From: Candidatus Spongiisociaceae bacterium
Lineage (GTDB): Bacteria > Actinomycetota > Acidimicrobiia > Spongiisociales > Spongiisociaceae
Length of the DNA stretch: 64,000 nt
Assembly: GCA_965219685.1 (NCBI GenBank)
Contig: CBDCOH010000002.1
Coordinates: 3,072,001 to 3,136,000 of the forward strand
Reading direction: 5' to 3'
The position numbers and the translations under genes are program-made. This document shows, piece by piece, positions 824-64,000 of this stretch (position 1 is its first letter; each line of letters opens with the position of its first letter). Below the pieces are notes generated by a model, which searched no databases, was not told the DNA's origin, and was given only the letters and a program-made list of their open reading frames with translations.

Positions 824-3181
824 TTACTGTGCCCATCGGACTCCTTCGGGGGCTGGTATCAGGCCCCTTTGGCCCCAGCATGCTGCTTGGCCGTCTGTTC
901 TTATTCCGCAGGATGTGTGGGTGAACAGGGTGAGGGAGCTGAATTCGCTTCCGGGTGGTTCTGTTTGTCCGTGGTCGTTGGGTCCCCAGCACGCGACGGT
1001 GCCGTCTGTTCGTATCCCACAGGAGTGCGTTCCGTCTTGGACGCTGACAGCCACGGCGGTGAACCGCCCGTCGGGTGCGTCTAGGTTCCCTTGATGGTCG
1101 TAGCCCCAGCATGCGATCGAGCCGTCGGTGCGGAGCCCGCAGATGTGGTCGTAGCCGCCCGAGAGGGCGGTGAACTGCCCGTCTGGTGCTTGGGTGTAGC
1201 GGCCCCAGCACGAGGCGGTGCGGTCGCTGCTGATGCCGCAGGTGTAGTCAACCCCGACGGCTACGGCGGTGTATTGGCTGTCGGGTGCGGCCAACGCTGC
1301 GGCGGGTGCTTGGTCACCCCAGCATGTGACAGCCCGGTCCGCTCGGATGGCGCAGGAGTGGGTGATGCCGGTGGCGAGGGTCGTGTATTGCCCGTCGGGT
1401 ACGTTCAGCTGTGCTTGGTCGTTCCGGCCCCAGCACACGATTCCACCGTCCTCCCGGAGTCCACATGAGTGTTGCGCCGAGGCCGACACCGTAGCGAACC
1501 GGCCGTCGGGTGGGTCGGACTGGCCTTCGTCGTTGTCTCCCCAGCACACGACCGTGGCGTCCGTGCGGAGTGCGCAGGTGTGTCCCCGTCCGGCGGTGAT
1601 GGACGTGAACCGTCCGTCGGGTACGTCGAGCTGGTCGGTTGTTCCTCCCCAGCAGGAGACAGTGCCGTCCGCTCGCAGACCACACAGATGGTGGAGCCCA
1701 CCGACCACCGAGGCGAACGCGCCGTCGCCTATTCGCCCGCCCCAGCAGACAACGGTGCCGTCCTCCCCCAACCCACACGTATGGAAGGGTCCTGTGGCTA
1801 TAGCAGCGAAGGTTCCGTCGGGAGCGTCGAGCTGTCCGTGGTCGTTCCCGCCCCAGCAGACGATGGTGCCGTCCTCCCGCAGGCCGCAGGAGTGGGCCGC
1901 CCCGGCGGTGACCGCCGCGAAGGAACCGTCGGGAGGGTCGGACTGCCCGTCTGTGTTACGGCCCCAACACTGGACGGTGCCATCCGCCCGCAGCCCACAC
2001 GTATGGAGGGGTCCCGCGGCTATGGCGGTGAAGGTCCCGTCGGGAGCGTCGCGCTGCCCGGCGAGGTCGTTGTCGCCCCAGCAGACAACCGTGCCGTCCT
2101 CCCGCAGCGCACACGTGTGGGCAGAACCGGCGGTGACCGCAGCGAAGGCTCCGTCGGGAGGGTCGGACTGCCCGTACTGGTTCCAACCCCAACACTCAAC
2201 CATCCCGTCCGCCCGGAGCCCGCACGAATGCCCGAACCCGGCTGTGATAGCAGTGAAGGTTCCGTCGGGTGCGTCGAGTTGTCCGTATTGGTTCCAGCCC
2301 CAGCACTGGGCGGTGCCGTCGGCCCGGAGTCCGCACGAATGCGCGAGCAAGGCGGCAAGGTCTGTGAACTTCCCATCGGGTGGATCCGCCTGACCCCAGG
2401 TGTCGAAACCCCAGCAGACCACAGAGCGGTCGGCTCTTAGCGCGCAGCTGTGGTCCGTGCCGGCTGCGATCTTGGTGAACCCCCCGCTGGGTGGGGTTGT
2501 CTCATCCGCGTCGGGTAGTAGGCCGAATGCTCTGGCTAGGAACGTGGCCATCTGAGCCCGGGTCGTCGCCTGGCCGGGGCAGAAACGGAGAGGGTCGGTG
2601 GCGCAGCCCACCGTGACTCCCGCCGCGGCCAACGCGTCGATGTTGGCCTCGTGAGTGTTACTGGCCGTGTCCGCGAACCCCGCCGGACCTGCGGGGTCGA
2701 GACCGACCGCCCGGACCAGGAACGTGGCCATCTGAGCGCGGGTCACGACCTGGTGGGGGCAGAACCGCAGCGGCTCCCGGGCGCAGCCCAAGGTGACCTC
2801 CAGGTCCGCGAGCCGCTCCACATAGGGTGTCCACCACTCGTCGGTGTCCACATCGGCGAAGCGTGTTCCCGCCTCGCTGGTTGGAGACTCGCCCAACGCT
2901 CGGACCAGCCACACCGCCATCACCCAACGGCGGATCGGATCTCCCGGACAGAACAGGCCCTCCCCACACTCGGTACCTGCCAGCACCCCCGCATTGGCCA
3001 GAGCATCGATCGCCGGCTCATGCACCGACCCGTCATCGTCACCAAACCAACCCGCCGCCGACACACTCACAGCCAGCACCACCAGCAGCATCACCGCCGT
3101 ACCCAACAGCATCCACACACCGACACGGCCACGAGCCACGCAACCATTCACAGACATCTCTTGTCTCCCTAGATCAGCCAT
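824..3181 (-). CDS. Secreted S-layer homology (SLH) protein with many RCC1-like repeats
   Basis: Signal-like hydrophobic N-terminus; SLH motifs (VTRAQMATFLVRA); about 15 repeats of H(S/T)CGLRxDGTxxCWG. Confidence 0.9.
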   Translation of the reverse strand: MADLGRQEMSVNGCVARGRVGVWMLLGTAVMLLVVLAVSVSAAGWFGDDDGSVHEPAIDALANAGVLAGTECGEGLFCPGDPIRRWVMAVWLVRALGESPTSEAGTRFADVDTDEWWTPYVERLADLEVTLGCAREPLRFCPHQVVTRAQMATFLVRAVGLDPAGPAGFADTASNTHEANIDALAAAGVTVGCATDPLRFCPGQATTRAQMATFLARAFGLLPDADETTPPSGGFTKIAAGTDHSCALRADRSVVCWGFDTWGQADPPDGKFTDLAALLAHSCGLRADGTAQCWGWNQYGQLDAPDGTFTAITAGFGHSCGLRADGMVECWGWNQYGQSDPPDGAFAAVTAGSAHTCALREDGTVVCWGDNDLAGQRDAPDGTFTAIAAGPLHTCGLRADGTVQCWGRNTDGQSDPPDGSFAAVTAGAAHSCGLREDGTIVCWGGNDHGQLDAPDGTFAAIATGPFHTCGLGEDGTVVCWGGRIGDGAFASVVGGLHHLCGLRADGTVSCWGGTTDQLDVPDGRFTSITAGRGHTCALRTDATVVCWGDNDEGQSDPPDGRFATVSASAQHSCGLREDGGIVCWGRNDQAQLNVPDGQYTTLATGITHSCAIRADRAVTCWGDQAPAAALAAPDSQYTAVAVGVDYTCGISSDRTASCWGRYTQAPDGQFTALSGGYDHICGLRTDGSIACWGYDHQGNLDAPDGRFTAVAVSVQDGTHSCGIRTDGTVACWGPNDHGQTEPPGSEFSSLTLFTHTSCGIRTDGQAACWGQRGLIPAPEGVRWAQ

Positions 3182-9997: not shown

Positions 9998-11513
9998 TAG
10001 ACACCCCAGGCGGCAAATGTCAAGCTGCGGCTTGGTCGGCAAATGTCAAGCTGCGGCTTGGTCGAGGGTGGTGCGGTGGGCCCAGGTAGTGTGTTCGTCA
10101 TAGGTGGTTCGGTGTTTGAGACAGCCGTGGAGGATACCCACGAGCCGGTTGGCGAGGGCTCGGAGTGCTTGGTGGTGGAGGTCGCCGGCGGCTCGGCGTT
10201 GGTCGTAGAACGCTCGGGCGCCTGGACTTCGGGTTAGGGAACAGAATGCCCATTGGTCGAGGGCGTCGTAGAGGCGCCGGTTGCGGACGTGGCGGGCCAT
10301 AACGGTGTGTTTGCGGCCTGACGCGATGGTGATGGGCGACGTGCCGGCATAGTTCCTGGGTGACTTGGCGCTGGTGTAGCGTTGGGGGTCGTCCCCGGAC
10401 TCTCTGCGAGCGCCCGGGCGCCGAGCACGGTACCGAGTCCTGGCTGGGAGTGGTAGATGACGGCGTCCGGGTGCTCCTCAAAGCGGGTTTCCAGGGTTGC
10501 TTCGAGGTCTGTGAACTGGCGGTTGGTTTCCGCAATGACGCTCACCAGCGCCCCCACAGTGGCCCCGTGTGCGTCGGTGACCCGCCCAGGAGCGGCGAGT
10601 TGGCGGGTGCGGAGCCCTTTTTGTATTCGACGGGCAGCCGTATCGAGGGTGCGGCGTCGGCCGGCGGCGCGGAGCGCGGCCCTAATCTGGGTGACGGTCA
10701 GGCGGGCACCCCGGGTGGGGGTGGTTGCCCGACCCAGCACGGCGACGGTGTCGCGATTAGCCCGCTCATCGAAGGTTTCGAGGGCTGCGGGGTAGTACTC
10801 GCGCAGGGCGTTGCGGATCTGGTTGGTGTGACGCACCCGAGCCCAGATCAGGTTCTGATGCGTCCTAGCCAGGACTTTGATCCCTTCGGCTTCGGGGCTA
10901 TCACCGGCAACCCGACGATGGTTGTGCCGGTCGGTGCGTACTAGGTCGGCTAACACCTTGGCGTCGCCACGGTCTGATTTGGCCCCACCCTGGCTATGAC
11001 GGGTCCCGGTAACGCGAAACTGCCATCGGGTTGATCGCATACACCTGATAACCCGCCCCGACCAGAGCACCGACCCACAAACCACGGTCACACTCGATGC
11101 CCACCACCACCTCGGACGGATCCGATACGTGCTCGCCGATCATCTCATGCAACTGGGCCACACCTGCCAGACCTTCTGGTAGCCGCCGAGCGGCCAACGG
11201 AACTCCGGACTCGTCCATGAGACACACATCATGATGTCCCTCAGCCCAGTCATCACCCACAAAGATCATCCTTGCCTCCTCCATAGACGGATCACTCTCG
11301 AGCTGTGGAGGAAACGCCTGGCGGCGACCTAGCAGATCAGTGCTCTTCGCGGCACGCCACCCCATGAGCGCTACAAGCAGCCCTCACTCACCGGCCGGAG
11401 CACGATCTATCAACAGGAATCAGAGTTCCAGGAGCTTGGAGTACTCACCGGCCAGCCAGCTCAACCACCACACCCTCCCAGATGAACCAGAAGAAGTGGT
11501 GGACCCCCATTAG
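9998..11513 (-). mobile_element. IS110-family element, lineage A copy A1 (frameshifted)
   Basis: Ends CTAATGGGGG and CCTGGGGTGTCTA with duplicated CTA core; near-identical inverted copy at 16162-17652. Confidence 0.9.
10046..11269 (-). pseudogene. IS110 recombinase with two frameshifts
   Basis: MIFVGDDWAEGHHD, AKSDRGDA and ALRALANRLVGILHGCL lie in three frames; intact homologue at 60890-62110. Confidence 0.9.
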
Positions 11514-16152: not shown

Positions 16153-16164
16153 GGGAAGAACCTA

Positions 16165-16400
16165 ATGGGGGTCCACCACTTCTTCTGGTTCATCTGGGAG
16201 GGTGTGGTGGTTGAGCTGGCTGGCCGGTGAGTACTCCAAGCTCCTGGAACTCTGATTCCTGTTGATAGATCGTGCTCCGGCCGGTGAGTGAGGGCTGCTT
16301 GTAGCGCTCATGGGGTGGCGTGCCGCGAAGAGCACTGATCTGCTAGGTCGCCGCCAGGCGTTTCCTCCACAGCTCGAGAGTGATCCGTCTATGGAGGAGG
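16165..16400 (+). ncRNA. Predicted bridge RNA of IS110-A2
   Basis: Stem ggccggtgagta..tgctccggcc encloses AAGCTCCT (16238-45) and TGATAG (16263-68), matching the reconstructed target; boundaries approximate. Confidence 0.7.
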
Positions 16401-16405
16401 CAAGG

Positions 16406-17629
16406 ATGATCTTTGTGGGTGATGACTGGGCTGAGGGACATCATGATGTGTGTCTCATGGACGAGTCCGGAGTTCCGTTGGCCGCTCGGCGGCTACCAGA
16501 AGGTCTGGCAGGTGTGGCCCAGTTGCATGAGATGATCGGCGAGCACGTATCGGATCCGTCCGAGGTGGTGGTGGGCATCGAGTGTGACCGTGGTTTGTGG
16601 GTCGGTGCTCTGGTCGGGGCGGGTTATCAGGTGTATGCGATCAACCCGATGGCAGTTTCGCGTTACCGGGACCCGTCATAGCCAGGGTGGGGCCAAATCA
16701 GACCGTGGCGACGCCAAGGTGTTAGCCGACCTAGTACGCACCGACCGGCACAACCATCGTCGGGTTGCCGGTGATAGCCCCGAAGCCGAAGGGATCAAAG
16801 TCCTGGCTAGGACGCATCAGAACCTGATCTGGGCTCGGGTGCGTCACACCAACCAGATCCGCAACGCCCTGCGCGAGTACTACCCCGCAGCCCTCGAAAC
16901 CTTCGATGAGCGGGCTAATCGCGACACCGTCGCCGTGCTGGGTCGGGCAACCACCCCCACCCGGGGTGCCCGCCTGACCGTCACCCAGATTAGGGCCGCG
17001 CTCCGCGCCGCCGGCCGACGCCGCACCCTCGATACGGCTGCCCGTCGAATACAAAAAGGGCTCCGCACCCGCCAACTCGCCGCTCCTGGGCGGGTCACCG
17101 ACGCACACGGGGCCACTGTGGGGGCGCTGGTGAGCGTCATTGCGGAAACCAACCGCCAGTTCACAGACCTCGAAGCAACCCTGGAAACCCGCTTTGAGGA
17201 GCACCCGGACGCCGTCATCTACCACTCCCAGCCAGGACTCGGTACCGTGCTCGGCGCCCGGGCGCTCGCAGAGAGTCCGGGGACGACCCCCAACGCTACA
17301 CCAGCGCCAAGTCACCCAGGAACTATGCCGGCACGTCGCCCATCACCATCGCGTCAGGCCGCAAACACACCGTTATGGCCCGCCACGTCCGCAACCGGCG
17401 CCTCTACGACGCCCTCGACCAATGGGCATTCTGTTCCCTAACCCGAAGTCCAGGCGCCCGAGCGTTCTACGACCAACGCCGAGCCGCCGGCGACCTCCAC
17501 CACCAAGCACTCCGAGCCCTCGCCAACCGGCTCGTGGGTATCCTCCACGGCTGTCTCAAACACCGAACCACCTATGACGAACACACTACCTGGGCCCACC
17601 GCACCACCCTCGACCAAGCCGCAGCTTGA
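16406..17629 (+). pseudogene. IS110 recombinase with two frameshifts
   Basis: ORF pieces 16310-16681, 16584-17441 and 17375-17629. Confidence 0.9.
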
Positions 17630-17652
17630 CATTTGCCCGCCTGGGGTGTCTA

Positions 17653-17869
17653 TCAGGTCACATCCGCTTCGAAGCCAAAGCTCCGCCATCAGGTCACATC
17701 CGCTTCGAAGCCAAAGCTCCGCCCCTGACCGGCGGGACAGGCCGACAGATCCCCAGCAAGGCAACACACGCGCCGGATTTCGATTGGGTCAGACCCGCCC
17801 CCCAGTCCAGGGGACCACCACTCATCCTCGCAGCAGTCCCCCTCAAAAGGGCACCTTCAGTATGAGTGA
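17653..17869 (-). mobile_element. Left end and 5' part of the bridge-RNA region of IS110-B1
   Basis: Homologous to 21132-21267 (CACTCATAC end, gggtctgaccc..gatctgtcg loop, GTGACCTGA). Confidence 0.8.
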
Positions 17870-46967: not shown

Positions 46968-47156
46968 TCCTATGGCACGCCACCCCGTGAGGGCTACAAG
47001 GGGTCTCACCAACCGGCCGGGGTACGATCTATGTTCAGGAGTCGGGTTCCAGGAGCATCCAACTCACCGGCCAGCCAGCTGGACCACCATACCCTCCCAG
47101 AAACACCATAAGAAGTGGTGGACCCCCTTAGGAGCATCCGGGCGGTTCAGTTGTAG

Positions 47157-57391: not shown

Positions 57392-57976
57392 CTGCCCTTC
57401 CGTTCCGCTGGGCGGCAACCGCTCCAACGAGTGCCTTGGTCGCATCCTAACCGATCTGCACCACTGTTCCGACACGGTTAGTGTAACCCAGCACACTGTA
57501 ACAACCCCGGAAAGGGTTTGTAATCCGTGCTGCCTACGTGTTGAAGTTGGTTCCGCTCTGCTCGGACCCCCGTCTGGCCCACGGGTGGGCAGTCAGCTCG
57601 GCTGCCGTCCCTAGCGACGTTGACCCCCTTTCGTGGACCCGCTTGTCCTTCTCCTCGTAGGCGGGATGGCGGAGGCGGTCATCGGCCTTGTGGATGGCTT
57701 GGCCGGCATCTGGCTGATACCGGTTTTGTTGATGGCGCACCCCCACGACTAGCCGGGTCCCCAGGTGCGGGAGGGGCTTATCTTGGAAGAGGTCAAGGTG
57801 TTCGACTGCGACCGGACGTTGGGCACCACAGCGGAGGAGCTGGCGCGCAGCGTGCAGTTCACCGTCGGTGTGCGAGTGGGCAGAGCCGGGTGTTGCGTAC
57901 CCGGGCCCGGTTCGAGACCTGGGCTGCCACGATCCGAATGGACGTGGATCCCGAACTGTTCGACCAGGAGCAGTTG

Positions 57977-58011
57977 TGAACCGCCCCGGGTTTGCCGGAG
58001 ACTCCGGGGGA
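57977..58011. repeat. IS3-type inverted repeat, left part of a 49-bp IR-IR remnant completed by 62361-62372
   Basis: TGAACCGCCCCGGGTTTGCCGGAGAC is the reverse complement of the IS3 end at 44865-44890. Confidence 0.8.
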
Positions 58012-58231
58012 ACACTCATACTTAAGGGGACCTCGACCGGGGTCCGGTCTGACGCAGCGGGAAACTGGCTGTGGTGCCTTACCCCGGATCTGTCGGCCGG
58101 GCACCGGTCGGGGGGTACGGGCAGCTAGCCCGGAGCGGATGTGACCTCATAGGAGCTTTGGTCGTTTCTTCCCCACACCCTGATGCTTCTATGTTGTGCA
58201 AATCCGGTGTTGGGGGTGGGGAGAGGTTCGG

Positions 58232-59305
58232 TTAGCCGCTGCCGGCGGGGGGTCCTGTATGGGTGTTGTGGTTGGGTGGGTTCTCTAGGAGCCGGTAGAG
58301 GTGGCGGGCGATGTAGCGTTTGAGGCAGCGTCGGGCTTCTCGGGGGGTTTTGCCTTCGGCGGTTCGTTTAGCGATGTAGGCCTGGGTCTTGGGGCAGGTG
58401 CGGGTGCGGGTGATGACGATGGTGTGGAGGGCTTGGTTGAGGGTTCGGTCGCCGTGGCGGTTGAGCCGGTGGCGGCTGTTTTGTCCGGAGGACGCCTCGA
58501 GTGGTGCTACGCCGGCGAGGCGGGCGAAGGCTGCTTCGTTACGGAAGCGGCCCCGGTGTGACCAGGCGACATAGATCTGAGCGGCGGTGATGGGTCCGAC
58601 TCCGGGCTGGTCAACCAGGTGGGGAGCGACTGTTTCGACGAGTTCGGCGATGAGCGCGGTTAGTTCGGCTATCTCGGTGGTGAGAGTCTTGATACGTCGG
58701 GCGACAGATCGCATGGCTGTCTTGGTGGCGGTGTGCTCGGTGAGGGTCCCGCCTCGGAGCCGGAATCTGTGGCACTTGGCGACCAGGCCAGCGGTGGTGA
58801 GGCCCCCGAGTTGGTCCCGCAGACCAACCGGTGCGGTTACTACCAGGGCTTTCAACTCGTTGATCGCCGCCACCCTGGCTGTTTGGGCTCCTCGGCGGGT
58901 GGTTTCCAACACTCGCAGCGCTTCGCGGTTTCCCCGAGCGCGGGGAACTGGCAGCCGACCACGGCCTAGGACCTGGCGGGCGGCCCGCCGTGCGTCGAGG
59001 GCGTCAGTCTTGGCGCCGTCGCGGGTCGGGGTGGGATCCCCGAACTCCACCACCCACTCACCACGGGCAGAAAGGTAGCCGGCCACGCCAGCTCCATAGC
59101 TGCCGGTGCCTTCCACAGACCACACCCGGTCACCTACCCGGGTGTGGGTGCCTGCCCATTCCAGCAGACGGTCGTAACCCACCCGGGTGGCGCCAAACAC
59201 CCCAGATGCCTGCTCTCCGGTGGTGGCAGTGTCCACCACCGACGCGGTGACCCGGTCCCGGTCAGGATCGATCCCGATCACGTGCTCTACCATCGTGGCC
59301 AACAT
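58232..59305 (-). CDS. IS110-family recombinase
   Basis: IGIDPD, VEGTGSYG, AKTDALDA, APLEASSG, HRLNRHGDR. Confidence 0.93.
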   Translation of the reverse strand: MLATMVEHVIGIDPDRDRVTASVVDTATTGEQASGVFGATRVGYDRLLEWAGTHTRVGDRVWSVEGTGSYGAGVAGYLSARGEWVVEFGDPTPTRDGAKTDALDARRAARQVLGRGRLPVPRARGNREALRVLETTRRGAQTARVAAINELKALVVTAPVGLRDQLGGLTTAGLVAKCHRFRLRGGTLTEHTATKTAMRSVARRIKTLTTEIAELTALIAELVETVAPHLVDQPGVGPITAAQIYVAWSHRGRFRNEAAFARLAGVAPLEASSGQNSRHRLNRHGDRTLNQALHTIVITRTRTCPKTQAYIAKRTAEGKTPREARRCLKRYIARHLYRLLENPPNHNTHTGPPAGSG

Positions 59306-59309
59306 AAGA

Positions 59310-59560
59310 AGACGCTCTCTTTCTTGTGCGAACTGGGCTATCGCCTCCTAAGGCGCAGACCGTGACGGCAGGACTGTGATGGGTCACACCCCGGACGGTG
59401 GACAAGCTTCTGATCAGGCCAGCAACGGAACGCCCAGGCGGCGCAGCGGCGGTGTCGGACGCATCACGGTAAAGACACAGAGGTCAGAGTGTTCTCGGGT
59501 CACGACCCCGCCGCTGACGCCAATCCTGGCAACCTCAACGAGACCCACCCGATACTCACA
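59310..59560 (-). ncRNA. Predicted bridge RNA of IS110-C
   Basis: Target loop GAACACTC / ACCGTGA inside stem agcggcgg..ccgccgct; donor loop AGAAGC / TCACAG matches its own ends. Confidence 0.75.
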
Positions 59561-59640
59561 GAGTGTTTTGTCCACCCGCTTCGGACCGGCGCTGCCGCAC
59601 AAATCCTATCCAACACAAGGAGAGGGGAGACACAGGGAGC

Positions 59641-60869
59641 ATGCCGGAACAAGACCAGGTCGATGTGTATGGAGGGGTTGATACCCATCGGGATATCCAC
59701 GTTGGAGCGGTGCTGGATCACACGGGTCGCCTACTGGGGTCAGAGGAGTTCAGGGCTGATGCGGCGGGATACGCGCAGCTGGAGGAGTGGCTCCGCTCCT
59801 GGGGGCAGCCGGTTCAGGTCGGTGTGGAAGGATGCGGTAGTTACGGCGCCGGCCTGGCTCGTTATCTGACCCGAGCCGACATCGAGGTGGTAGAAGTGAT
59901 GCGTCCCAACCGCCAGCTGCGTCGTCTCAGAGGCTGACACGGTCGACACCGAGGCTGCAGCCAGAGCTGCCCTCAGCGGAGATGCCACCGGGCGACCCAA
60001 AGGCGGGGACGGACCCGTAGAAGGGATAAGAATGCTTCGGATGGCTCGCCGTTCAGCGGTCAAAGCACGCACCCAGGCCGCCAACCAGATCCACGCCCTC
60101 CTCACAACCGCCCCTGAGCAGGTCAAACATCGGCTCCGGGACTCCAGTATCCAAGCGATGGTCAGAATCTGTGTCCGCTGGCGTCCCGGCGAAGCGCAGA
60201 CCACCACCGCGTACGCGAAAAAGGCGCTGCGGCACCTGGCCCGCCGATACCGGACCCTCGACACAGAAATAGCCGAACTCGACACCGACATCCGCCGTCT
60301 CTGCGCCAAGGCCAACCCGGCGCTCCTAGCCGCCTCCGGAGTGGGCCCCCACAGCGCTGCAGCACTCCTAGTCGCCGCCGGCGACAACCCCCAACGCATG
60401 AAATCCGAAGCGGTCCTTCGCGGCACTATGCGCCCTCAGCCCCGTCCAAGCATCATCGGGACAGATAGTTCGGCATCGGCTCAACCGAGGCGGCGACCGC
60501 CAAGCCAACAACGCTCTCTGGCGAATCGCCACCAACCGGATACGCACCGACCCCCGCACCATCGAATACACCCGCAGACGCAAAGCCGAAGGCAAAACCC
60601 GCCGCGAGATCATCCGCTGCCCCAAACGGCACATCGCCCGCGAGATCTACCACCTCCTAACCAAACCATCCCCAACACCCGACGGCAACGACCTCCGCCT
60701 CCAACGCCACCAAACCCGACTAACCCTCACCGACACCGCCGAACACCTCCAGGTCCACCCCACCCTCCTATCACTCCTCGAACGAGGCCTCCACCACAAC
60801 CACCAGCTCGCCACCCGCTACCAGAAATGGCTCACCGACCCGACCACAAAACCGATTTGCAAAACATAG
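59641..60869 (+). pseudogene. IS110-B recombinase with C-terminal HTH, frameshifted
   Basis: GGVDTHRDIH, VEGCGSYG; frame breaks near 59933 and 60410. Confidence 0.85.
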
Positions 60870-60889
60870 ACACCCCAGGAGCGCAAATG

Positions 60890-62110
60890 TCAAGCTGCGG
60901 CTTGGTCGAGGGCGGTTCGGTGTGCCCATGCGGTGTGTTCGTTGTAGGGGGTTCGGTGTTTGAGGCAGCCGTGGAGGATGCCGACGAGTCGGTTGGCGAG
61001 GGCTCGTAGTGCTTGGTGGTGGAGGTCGTCGGCTGCTCTTCGTTGGTCGTAGAACGCTCGGGCGCCTGGGCTGTTGTTTAGGGAACAGAACGCCCACTGG
61101 TCGAGGGCGTCGTAGAGACGCCGGTTGCGTATGTGGCGGGCGACCACGGCGTGTTTGCGGCCTGACGCCACTGTGACGGGCGACGTGCCGGCGTAGTTTC
61201 TGCGAGACTTGGCGCTGGTGTAGCGTTGGGGGTCGTCCCCGAACTCACCAAGCGCCCGGGCGCCGAGGACATTGCCGAGTCCTGGCTGTGAGAGGTAGAT
61301 ACCGGCGTCCGGGTGCTCCTCAAAGCGGGTTTCCAGGGCTGCTTCGAGTTCTGCGATCTGGCGGTTCAGTTCCGCAACGACGCTCACCAGCGCCCCCACA
61401 GTGGCCCCGTGTGCATCGGCGACCGGGCCGGGTGCGGCGAGCTGGGGGGTGCGGAGGCCTTTCTGGATTCGGCGGGCAACCTTGTCGAGGTTGCGTCTCC
61501 GGCCGGCGGCTTTGAGCGCGGCTCGGATCTGGGGCAGGGTCAGGCGGGCACCCCGGGTGGGGCTGGTTGCCCGGCCGAGTACAGCCAGGGTGTCGCGATG
61601 GGCCAGGTCATCAAAGGTTTCCAGCGCTGCGGGATAGTATCCTCGGAGCGTGTTGCGCATCTGGTTGGTGTGACGCACCCGGGCCCATTTCAGGTTCTGA
61701 TGTGTTCTCGCCAGTGCTTTGATCCCGTCGGCTTCGGGGCTGTCACCGGCCACGCTACGATGGTTGTGACGGTCGGTTCGTACCAGATCGGCTAACACCT
61801 TGGCGTCGCCACGGTCTGACTTAGCTCCTCCCAGGTGATGCCGGTCCCGGTAACGGGACACCGCCTTGGGATTGATCGCATACACCTGATAGCCCGCCCC
61901 GATGAGGGCACCAACCCAGAGGCCACGGTCGGTTTCGATGCCTACCACCACCTCGGCCGGCTCCGATGCGTGCTCGGCGACCATCTCATGCAAGCCGCCA
62001 ATCCCCTTGATCCCTTCCCGGAAACGAGCGAAACCCAGGCGGGCTCCGTAGGCGTCCATCAGATACACATCGTGGTGGCCCTCAGCCCAGTCGTTACCAA
62101 CAAAGATCAT
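60890..62110 (-). CDS. IS110-family recombinase
   Basis: 406 aa; VGNDWA, GIETD, AKSDRGDA, YAGTSPVTVASG. Confidence 0.95.
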   Translation of the reverse strand: MIFVGNDWAEGHHDVYLMDAYGARLGFARFREGIKGIGGLHEMVAEHASEPAEVVVGIETDRGLWVGALIGAGYQVYAINPKAVSRYRDRHHLGGAKSDRGDAKVLADLVRTDRHNHRSVAGDSPEADGIKALARTHQNLKWARVRHTNQMRNTLRGYYPAALETFDDLAHRDTLAVLGRATSPTRGARLTLPQIRAALKAAGRRRNLDKVARRIQKGLRTPQLAAPGPVADAHGATVGALVSVVAELNRQIAELEAALETRFEEHPDAGIYLSQPGLGNVLGARALGEFGDDPQRYTSAKSRRNYAGTSPVTVASGRKHAVVARHIRNRRLYDALDQWAFCSLNNSPGARAFYDQRRAADDLHHQALRALANRLVGILHGCLKHRTPYNEHTAWAHRTALDQAAA

Positions 62111-62114
62111 CCTT

Positions 62115-62350
62115 CGCCTCCTTCTCCGGGGATCAACTCTCTCCTGAGCTGTCGAGAACGCCTGGCGGCGACCTAATGGATCAGTGCTCTATGGCACGCC
62201 ACCCCATGAGCGCTACAAGCGGTCTCACCAACTGGCCGGGGCACGATCTATGTTCAGGAATCAGGTTCCAGGAGCATCCAGTACTCACCGGCCAGCCAGC
62301 TCAACCACCACACCCTCCCAGAAACACCAGAAGAAGTGGTGGACCCCCAT
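62115..62350 (-). ncRNA. Predicted bridge RNA of IS110-A3
   Basis: Guides GGATGCTCCT (62279-70) and AACATAG (62254-48) match the flanks; CCATTAG and TGGGGTG match its own ends. Confidence 0.78.
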
Positions 62351-62374
62351 TAGGAGCATCCGGGGCGGTTCAGA

Positions 62375-64000
62375 CCCGAGTTTGGCGGGTTGGGGGGCTT
62401 TGTGGGGGTGGTTGGTTCGCTGACCTGGGGTTTTGTGGTGTAGAACACCGTTCCGGTGCGAGAATGTAGGGGCGACATATCGTTGATTAGATGGGCTGTT
62501 AGTGGTATTGTTCTGGCCATGTTCGTAAAGACGACCCGCCGTCGCAGGGGCGACAAGGTTTACGAGTATTTGTCTTTGGTGGAGTCTTTCCGCCAAGGGT
62601 CGAAGGTCGGTCACCGGACTCTTTTGCGGCTGGGGGAGGTGACCGCTTTGCGGGAGTCCGGCCAGCTGGAACGGATCGTGGCCGCGCTGGAGCGTCATCT
62701 ACGCCGCGAACGTGTCGATGTGGGGGCGTTGGAAGCTGAGGGGGCGCCTGGGGTGGGGGCGGTAGCGGCGGTGTGGGCGGTGTGGCAGCGGCTCGGCCTC
62801 GACGAGTGGTTCGCTCAGGTCGGCGCTAGACGGGGCGCGAAGGCCTTGGAGCATGCGGTATTCGCGATGGTGGCCAACCGGTTGGTGGCACCGTGCTCGA
62901 AGCGGCAACTGGTTGAGTGGGCCGGGGCGGATGTGGTCATGCCCGAGGGCTGGTCGGCTCCGTCGATTGATCAGTACTACCGGGCCCTGGACGCGGTCGC
63001 CGCTTCCAAGGACGACACGGAGACACATCTGTATTCGCGGTTGTGCGACCTGACGAACCTGGACCTGCGGCTGGTTTGCTACGACCTCACTTCCACATAT
63101 TTCGAGGGTTCGACCCGCCCGTCTGGGCGTTTCCCATCCCGGGCGTTCGGTTACTCGCGGGACCATCGTGCTGATCGGCCCCAGATAGTGATCGGCCTGC
63201 TGTGCACCTCCGACGGGATCCCGATCGCTCATCGGGTGTTCTCGGGCAACACCGCCGATGTCATCACCCTGGCGGCAGTGTTGAGCGACCTGGCCGAGAG
63301 GTTCGCGGTGGGCCGTATCTGTGTGGTCGCTGACAGGGGCCTGATGTCGGCAGCCAACATCGAAGTGGTCGCCGAAGCCGGGTTCGACCACATATTGGCC
63401 ACGAAACTGCGTCGTGACCGTATCAGCAACCAAGCCCTTGCGGCCATCGACGACGACACCGTCTGGGTCGACATAGACCAGTACCGTTGCCGCGCCGCTG
63501 ATATCAGCCTCGAGGACGGCACCCGGGCGGTTGTGGTCGAGTCCGACGGCCGCGCCCGCCGAGACGCCGCCCGCACAGCCCACATCATCGCCGCGGCGGA
63601 GGCAAAACTGCGGGCGCTGGAGCTGCGCGTCCGCGCCGGCAAGCTGAAGGACCCCGCCAAAATCGGGGCGGCCGCGCAGCGTATCCTCGCCTCCGGCGGC
63701 GCCGGACGGCTCTTCGACATCGAGATCGGAGCTGGACGGTTTCTCTACCACTACAACGAAGACACCCACACATACGAAGAACTCCTCGCCGGTCGCTACG
63801 TGCTAGCCACAAGCCTCACACCCGCCCAGGCCCCCACCGCCCAAGTCGTGGACCACTACCGCCAACTGCAAGCAGTCGAGACCCGCTTCAGGGTCCTCAA
63901 AGACTTCCTGAGGCTCCGCCCCGTCAGGCACTGGACCGAACAACGAGTCCGCGGCCACGTCGCGGTCTGCGTCTACGCCGCCCTAATCGAAACCCTCATC
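62375..64000 (+). mobile_element. Second IS1634 copy, inverted relative to the first, runs off the window (transposase from about 62519)
   Basis: IR CCCGAGTTTGGCGGG; alternate-frame ORFs identical to those of 45014-46967. Confidence 0.92.

Follow-up and report, generated by a model that had tools for sequence, protein, structure and literature searches.

The stretch of DNA analysed here (the window; 64,000 nucleotides, C2:3072001-3136000) belongs to the genome of a Candidatus Spongiisociaceae bacterium (GCA_965219685.1), which consists of two contigs and is referred to as G000. Positions without a prefix are those of the window and positions marked C2 are those of its contig, CBDCOH010000002.1. 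At 57977-62372 lie three insertion sequences (ISs) of the IS110 family, two of which (C and A3) interrupt the third (B4), which itself interrupts a mini-element consisting of two IS3 inverted repeats. We read the region 57600-62800, listed its open reading frames (ORFs) and compared it with the window's own genome by BLAST. An earlier note on this DNA had proposed a four-element nest built on a 49-bp IS3 end-to-end element, and we reproduced its coordinates and sequence: the 4396 bp of the nest are exactly the IS3 mini-element (49), B4 (1486), C (1377) and A3 (1484), and taking out A3, C and B4 leaves 57977-58013 plus 62361-62372, that is, 49 nt.

From left to right, the nest opens with 37 nt of the IS3 mini-element (57977-58013), recognized by reading the sequence and from copies in the genome. 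Of these, 57977-58001 correspond, in the inward direction, to the right-end inverted repeat of IS3 (identical at 25/25 positions to full IS3 copies at their GGTTTGCC end), and 58002-58013 are the inner part of the left-end inverted repeat (...CTCCGGGGGAAC), the left target of B. The first part of the B4 left end follows on the plus strand (58014-58183), delimited by alignment with intact B copies, its fold, a 10-member consensus and guide/flank covariation. It is interrupted by C (58184-59560, minus strand), which we defined by Pfam and NCBIfam matches, its junctions, its empty site and its fold. B4 then continues up to ...CAAAACATAG (59561-60869, plus strand; BLAST to intact B copies and three-frame reading), and 58014-58183 and 59561-60869 are uninterrupted in three other B copies of the genome. 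A3 (60870-62353, minus strand; its length includes one CTA core) separates from the rest of B4 its final 7 nt, GAGCATC (62354-62360, plus strand), intact B copies ending in ...CAAAACATAGGAGCATC. The right target of B, CGGGGCGGTTCA (62361-62372), consists of the outermost 12 nt of the left-end inverted repeat of IS3 and closes the 49-mer. For C, A3 and B alike, the empty site could be rebuilt at every junction with an overlap of only 1-3 nt. The transposase genes of C (58232-59305, minus strand, 357 aa) and A3 (60890-62110, minus strand, 406 aa) are still intact and carry PF01548 and PF02371; both domains are also found in the broken B4 gene, a pseudogene on the plus strand that starts at 59641 and contains at least two frameshifts.

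Membership of the IS110 family is indicated by the presence of PF01548 (N-terminal, DEDD/RuvC-like) and PF02371 (C-terminal) in A3, C and the intact B copy at C2:3022161, and by scores of 181.7, 201.9 and 163.7 bits for A, B and C against NF033542 'IS110 family RNA-guided transposase' (cut-off 140). The left ends measure 243-255 nt and the right ends 20-48 nt, the long non-coding end being upstream of the recombinase gene, and the left ends of A, B and C each fold into two stem domains with candidate guides flanking the internal loops on their 5' and 3' sides. No terminal inverted repeats were found in A3, B or C (best match 6/12 in each). According to PMC11208160, the left target guide of IS621 runs in the same sense as the left flank with its core, and the right one is the reverse complement of the core plus right flank; the loops of A3, B and C follow this left-sense, right-antisense rule. 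Since the donor guides are nearly invariant, little covariation is to be had from the donor loop, and the left donor guides of B and C lack core pairing. None of the 18 listed rows of sequencing runs containing the stretch is recorded as RNA.

The surroundings are an IS accumulation zone: the 130 kb at C2:3020000-3150000, which include the window, hold 15 of the 21 IS110-type transposase loci of the genome, several IS3 and IS1634 copies, and a second nest (C2:3049-3053 kb) in which C interrupts B', a relative of B.

Element B and its IS3 target

The sequence TGAACCGCCCCG occurs 28 times in the genome and bounds, among others, elements of 1323 bp (e.g. C2:1235606-1236928) with two ORFs of 113 and 306 aa that overlap by 4 nt, match HTH_Tnp_1 and rve, and score 300.6 bits against NF033516 'IS3 family transposase' (cut-off 160). 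The two ends of this IS3 element start with TGAACC and match at 21 of 25 positions, and a 3-bp direct repeat flanks three of the four full copies (CTT, ATC, CAT), none being present at C2:4352270. The end of the GTTACCCC type adjoins orfA and is thus the left inverted repeat. Two variants of this repeat matter here, GGGGTAAC, the commonest in this genome, and GGGGAAAC, common in the sister genome G001 (8/12 sites), which matches the guides of B better than GGGGTAAC does.

The left half of the 49-mer is identical to one IS3 end (25/25) and the right half nearly so to the other (23/24). An uninterrupted 49-mer at C2:2939823-2939871 is identical to it at 44 of 49 positions and would form a DNA hairpin of -20.3 kcal/mol (z -5.9, 0/200 shuffles as good); no target duplication is visible at either copy. 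The unoccupied copy matches the B left guide at 6 of 9 positions and has T at the crossover, which is compatible with its emptiness and does not prove the reason for it. Doubled IS3 tips are present at two places, as CGGGGCGGTTC-CGGGGCGGTTCA on the right side of the B copy at C2:4233033 (C2:4231527) and as two occurrences of CGGGGCGGTTCATTT after the empty 49-mer (C2:2939860). At C2:3020644 a 19-nt piece of the end of the IS1634-family element that borders the nest adjoins another IS3 tip in inverted sense. This right neighbour of the nest, which lies outside it (62373-64000, plus strand; NF033559, 329.5 bits), has a left end, GACCCGAGTTTGG..., that is common to five copies and adjoins the IS3 tip. 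IS1634 ends at IS3 tips (62373; C2:3020644) may represent one more layer of end-to-end nesting.

Complete B copies of 1484-1486 bp are found elsewhere at C2:217366, C2:3022161 and C2:4233033. The ORF of the second is intact (399 aa); those of the other two contain one in-frame stop each. All five B left ends in the genome are preceded by GAGWCTCNGGRGNAAC, and a CGGGGCGGTTCA-like tip comes after each of the three other complete right ends. Every B insertion lies antiparallel to orfAB in the orfA-proximal IS3 end (GTTWCCCC type, left inverted repeat), at a distance of 12 nt from the tip, and the same junction was found in locus L013 of G001 and locus L028 of G002 in addition to the five left ends of G000. 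At C2:3022161 the host of B is a full IS3, with B 12 nt from the tip of its left inverted repeat; in L013 the IS3 body lies upstream of the B-type element; and no IS3 body accompanies the solo 28-nt repeat-like sequences that make up the sites at 217k and 4233k. The outer flanks of the B copies are unrelated to one another. We also considered the shared 16+12 nt flanks as part of B and rejected this, since unoccupied copies of the IS3 repeat contain both flanks without a break, each flank being one half of the repeat.

The guides predicted in the first internal loop of the B left end correspond to this placement. Its 5' side is CCGGGAAAC (GCGGGAAAC in B4, 58057-58065, plus strand) and its 3' side CCCCGGA (58082-58088, plus strand), with the apical hairpin of the target-binding loop between them, inside 58014-58183. 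As the earlier note had counted, CCCCGGA is the reverse complement of the right-junction TCCGGGG at all seven positions. The note had also set the recurrence of the B-IS3 adjacency as a test beforehand, and the adjacency does recur in this genome, in four complete B copies, one partial copy and one relic. Its further claim that the B guide points at IS3 stood as to the adjacency and the reading of the guides; the resemblance it had seen was to CCGGCAAAC, which is the other inverted repeat and contains no B copy. This right-end repeat matches the left guide at 8 of 9 positions, and we rejected it as the cognate site of B. At the C2:4233k site, the two B guides match 14 of 16 positions (12/3000 shuffles as good).

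Relatives of B were taken from the sister genomes, the two loop segments and both flanks being extracted by a fixed pattern, which gave 28 unique complete insertion events falling into nine guide classes. Counting one event per class, the left guide agreed with its flank at 77 of 81 positions and the right guide at 41 of 45; in permutations of guides against flanks, 0/20000 reached either value (means 46.5 and 15.4). The guides of L028, for instance, match their flanks at 9/9 and 5/5 positions. RNAalifold on 10 B-family left ends retained a basal stem, an apical GGC/GCC hairpin and a large internal loop, with three pairs showing two-sided changes; in this consensus the target loop is well supported and the donor loop poorly resolved. 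The predicted target guides of the B family covary with their flanks under the strand rules of IS621. None of the claims made here rests on G032 or G043, two genomes flagged as unpublished.

One member of the family lies within a sibling's own left target guide (L030; G021:C1, ~1562000; locus 2774-2990, minus strand). There the sequence ...GACTCACCTTGTAA|CACTCATAATGG... occurs twice in tandem, and the guide DNA mimics the target.

Elements C and A3 within B

The insertion site of C, read on its own (minus) strand and reconstructed from intact B copies, is GGACAAAACAC-TC-AGGGTGTGG, the right side beginning with AGGGTG, and is the DNA encoding the right donor guide of B. In B4 this guide is accordingly split, its initial TGA closing the first part of the element and the remaining GAGTGT lying at 59561-59566 (plus strand); the left donor guide of B4, CATAGGAGC, is at 58148-58156 (plus strand). 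The first loop of C carries AGAACACTC on its 5' side and ACCGTGA on its 3' side (left target guide 59487-59495, right target guide 59464-59470; left donor 59406-59414, right donor 59374-59379; all minus strand), and its target guides match the empty site at 14 of 16 positions (0/2000 shuffles as good). A second copy of C at C2:3051032-3052409 is 98-100% identical to it per 100 nt and ~99.7% overall, whereas identity between the two hosts, B and B', is no more than 59-88%, indicating that C inserted independently at a homologous site in each. The same B-like sequence adjoins C-like ends in G007, G013 and G026.

A3 lies 7 nt inside the right end of B, and four further copies, ~84% identical, exist in the genome. 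On its own strand its site is GGATGCTC-CT(A)-TGTTTTGC, the reverse complement of the B right end together with a single base from the IS3 tip. Its target guides, GGATGCTCCT (left, 62270-62279) and GAACATAG (right, 62248-62255), match this empty site at 17 of 17 positions (0/3000 shuffles as good, best 14), and in its second loop TGGGGTGGC and CCATTAGG (left donor 62198-62206, right donor 62172-62179; all guides on the minus strand) match the ends of A itself. That C and A3, too, would be placed by guides of their own, onto B, goes beyond the earlier note. The copies of A at C2:3082k and C2:3089k and relatives in G002 and G006 lie inside the left-donor-guide DNA of B-like elements, and here the guide varies with the host: CCAAGCTCCT is found for host CAAAGCTCCT and CCAGGCTCCT for host CAAGGCTCCT. 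In the A-type element L102, where CCAGGCTCCT faces host CAAGGCTCCT, guide and flank agree at 9/10 positions on the left and 9/9 on the right, and the A-type element L078 of G001 has the flank GGATGCTCCTA again, placing it in a B right end.

A relic of a second nest lies at 46970-47150 (minus strand), where 160 nt of an A3-type left end are followed by GAGCATC, the tail of B, and by CGGGCGGTTCA, the IS3 tip. The recurrence that the earlier note had reported at 47129-47149 is therefore real, with the target guides of A3 and a different right flank. BLAST aligned the relic at 91.9% identity over 185 nt, and an IS1634-type element truncates it at 46969.

Several other traces of A elements were observed. 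Stubs of 18 nt from the A left end, ATGGGGGTCCACCACTTC, adjoin CCTA without the rest of A at C2:3481225, C2:638890 and C2:101390, the first of them in a repeat of the type that also hosts the full A copy at C2:2497k; judged from the sequence, such stubs may be footprints of imprecise loss or mini-elements. At the A copy C2:3089k (window 16161-17653), TCAGGTCACATCCGCTTCGAAGCC is duplicated in tandem on one side of the B-like left donor guide that the copy occupies, and the other side apparently lacks 12 nt. A search of the whole window with Rfam at gathering thresholds returned no bridge-RNA family and only Ms_AS-4 (RF02464), an actinobacterial sRNA, which matched at 61208-61289 (plus), 10364-10447 (plus) and 17228-17311 (minus) with 63.9-80.7 bits (gathering 50). 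These matches lie antisense within each of the window's three A-type IS110 transposase genes, and RF02464 may represent a conserved antisense RNA against the A-type transposase lineage.

Origin of the nest

We estimate at about 85% the probability that the locus is a stack of sequential site-specific insertions of IS110-family (DEDD) elements, each directed by a bridge RNA encoded in its own left end. This reading is built on the junctions, the empty sites, the guide matches and the family-wide covariation, all of which were observed directly. It supposes that the predicted RNAs are produced and used by the recombinases, in the following course of events. The locus would have begun as the 49-bp IS3 mini-element, its two inverted repeats joined end to end, beside the IS1634-type element. 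B would then have entered the IS3 left-end repeat 12 nt from its tip (...GGGGRAAC^CGGGGCGGTTCA) by means of the guides CCGGGAAAC and CCCCGGA. Subsequently, and in either order, C would have inserted into the right-donor-guide DNA of B with a crossover at its core TC, and A3 into the right end of B, 7 nt from the tip, with a crossover at its core CT(A), each at the site set by its own target loop. The IS3 repeat would have been split in this way, and B4 presumably disabled at its donor loop and right end; the present B4, besides its frameshifts, has lost its donor loop and has a right end that is no longer continuous. As each IS110 element sits at the site of its own guide, the targets of these elements appear to be other mobile elements and not host genes.

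Several observations weigh against this history. The fit of B to its target is imperfect: the left guide of B4 itself matches its flank CGGGGGAAC at only 6 of 9 positions, as the earlier note had it, and against the commonest local variant, GGGGTAAC, the B guides reach 13/16, a score equalled by 118 of 2000 shuffles. The genome holds 146 sites with at least 12 of 14 positions identical to the predicted 14-nt target of B, and only 18 of these are IS3 repeats (1 of 6 at 13/14 and 17 of 140 at 12/14). No B copy was found in the genome outside IS3-repeat-like sites, so that something beyond the 14 nt, or history, must add specificity. The left donor guides of B and C match the right end only to 3 nt before the crossover; in B, CATAGGAGC is followed by TTT while the end reads ...GGAGC and then ATC (e.g. 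58148-58159; for C, 59403-59414). Finally, a C-like element in contig X1, from the metagenome of another study, is not in a B-like context. Its left flank fits the C left guide at 9 of 9 positions all the same, which argues that guides, and not B as such, define the site of C.

A different agent of insertion is conceivable, namely the host element: the recombinase and bridge RNA of B could have drawn A and C to sequences resembling the B donor, by a 'half-match' route such as has been proposed for expanded IS110 loci. Both invaders do lie at B donor-type sequence (A3 in the right end, C in the DNA copy of the right donor arm). The preprint 10.64898/2026.08.14.744561 describes expanded IS110 loci in which the boundaries of internal insertions are enriched for one-sided matches to host donor ends, and half-match insertion has been shown for IS621 (10.64898/2026.08.31.748434). 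The matches at this locus, however, are two-sided and reside in the target loop of the invader (17/17 for A3, 14/16 for C), and the crossovers fall at the invaders' cores, CT(A) and TC, instead of the crossover C of B, with A3 7 nt inside the B end. Moreover, the left guides of the invaders co-vary with host variants across genomes, and sites outside B that suit their guides are likewise occupied by A-type and C-type elements. Capture by B is thus very unlikely in our judgement. A shade less likely still is a history in which B, A and C entered these sites a single time by chance and the old composite was then copied together with its surroundings. The relic at 46970, uniformly ~92% identical to the A3 end, B tail and IS3 tip, could be an old duplicate of that kind, but its right flank is different, the outer flanks of the B copies are unrelated, and other genomes show these placements too, with corresponding changes in the guides. 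Copying of a composite cannot yield a C that is 98-100% identical between hosts that are 59-88% identical; segmental duplication could hence account for the relic and not for C.

We regard as least likely that assembly created the nest by joining repeat copies into a chimera. The region is packed with repeats, as the concentration of IS110-type loci at C2:3.02-3.15 Mb attests, and the read evidence consists of short-read contigs from three runs of one sample, which is probably the source of the assembly, so that these contigs do not constitute independent support. None of the contig pieces listed bridges 60869/60870 or 62353-62373, the junctions of A3. On the left side, by contrast, an 871-nt contig covers 57700-58040, including unique flank, IS3 end and B, with zero differences, and another, from 58154 to 59567, contains the left B|C junction and extends 7 nt beyond the right one. 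Joints that skip 1379 and 1484 nt are those of the other, uninterrupted B copies; stretches outside the contigs count as evidence neither way, and the small-share metagenome runs X2-X14 contribute no support. All junctions are exact to the base and show the core overlap expected of them, the lengths give 4396 in total, and the junction types recur: C in B' at C2:3051032, C in B-like sequence in G007, G013 and G026, and A in B in the 46970 relic and in L078 of G001. Base-exact junctions and recurrence in other loci and genomes make mis-assembly unlikely, and sequential guided insertion remains the preferred history.

Comparison with known systems and biological meaning

The elements resemble IS621 and the IS110 group, as characterized by Durrant et al. 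2024 (PMC11208160), in their DEDD and PF02371 recombinase with an RNA in the long left end, in a first loop with guides for the target flanks and a second loop for the element's own ends, and in having neither terminal inverted repeats nor a target duplication beyond a short core. They differ from IS621 in that their targets are other mobile elements and not REP sequences. In place of the fixed CT of IS621, the B family has an invariant crossover base, C only, preceded by A or T, and the A family uses CT(A). The left donor guide of IS621 includes the core (PMC11208160), whereas those of B and C, known here from their sequence, end 3 nt before the crossover. The expanded and half-match loci of 10.64898/2026.08.14.744561 and 10.64898/2026.08.31.748434 are similar in that DNA is inserted within an IS110 element at sequence related to the donor end; those loci involve one-sided matches, the host element's own system and cargo inserts, in contrast to the autonomous IS110 elements found here, whose own target loops fit both sides.

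Transposon ends are also occupied by other members of the wider family, and B is found at one fixed position and in one orientation within the terminal repeat of its host transposon. IS4321/IS5075 reportedly insert into the terminal repeats of Tn21-family transposons, and IS1383 into the inverted repeats of IS1384, and B resembles them in that a different transposon receives it within the terminal inverted repeat, at a fixed position and in a single orientation. Unlike these IS1111-group elements, B is of the IS110 group, has its RNA upstream and uses an IS3-family element as host. The IS1111 group is described in PMC11187229 as having subterminal repeats and an RNA downstream of the transposase gene. 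B departs from this architecture, as neither terminal nor subterminal repeats were found in it and its long non-coding end is upstream of the gene. On its sequence, B would act like the 'terminal-repeat hunters' of the IS1111 group and is not one of their members. The mechanism, that of IS621-type bridge RNAs, is already known, and the targeting of another transposon's inverted repeat by an IS110-type element has precedent. Our literature search found no target guides aimed at the donor end or guide-encoding DNA of another IS110 element, and supplements, such as the target tables of PMC11208160, may hold cases.

We lean, by little more than an even chance, towards a guided hierarchy of parasites upon parasites in the genus, in which B lineages would be directed to the IS3 inverted repeat and A and C lineages to the donor end and donor-guide DNA of B. 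The guide segments of B would be unavoidable DNA copies of its ends, and, being constrained by function, they would make dependable multi-copy targets. The sibling insertion into an own-type left target guide in G021 fits such a hierarchy. If it is true, bridge-RNA genes would be both weapons and targets, and each insertion would disable the RNA of the host element.

The locus would provide a base-exact natural case of bridge-RNA target loops reprogrammed onto mobile elements, with three tiers in 4.4 kb, and the B family offers a ready covariation set of nine guide classes with their flanks. For the engineering of bridge recombinases, such natural guide/target pairs may be of use, and off-target prediction should extend to the inside of donor and guide cassettes. 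Because guide DNA repeats the ends and targets of its element, it is open to attack by relatives or by the element itself, a point of which we found no discussion. Targeting of this kind would help to explain why the elements pile up in one IS-rich zone rather than disrupting host genes.

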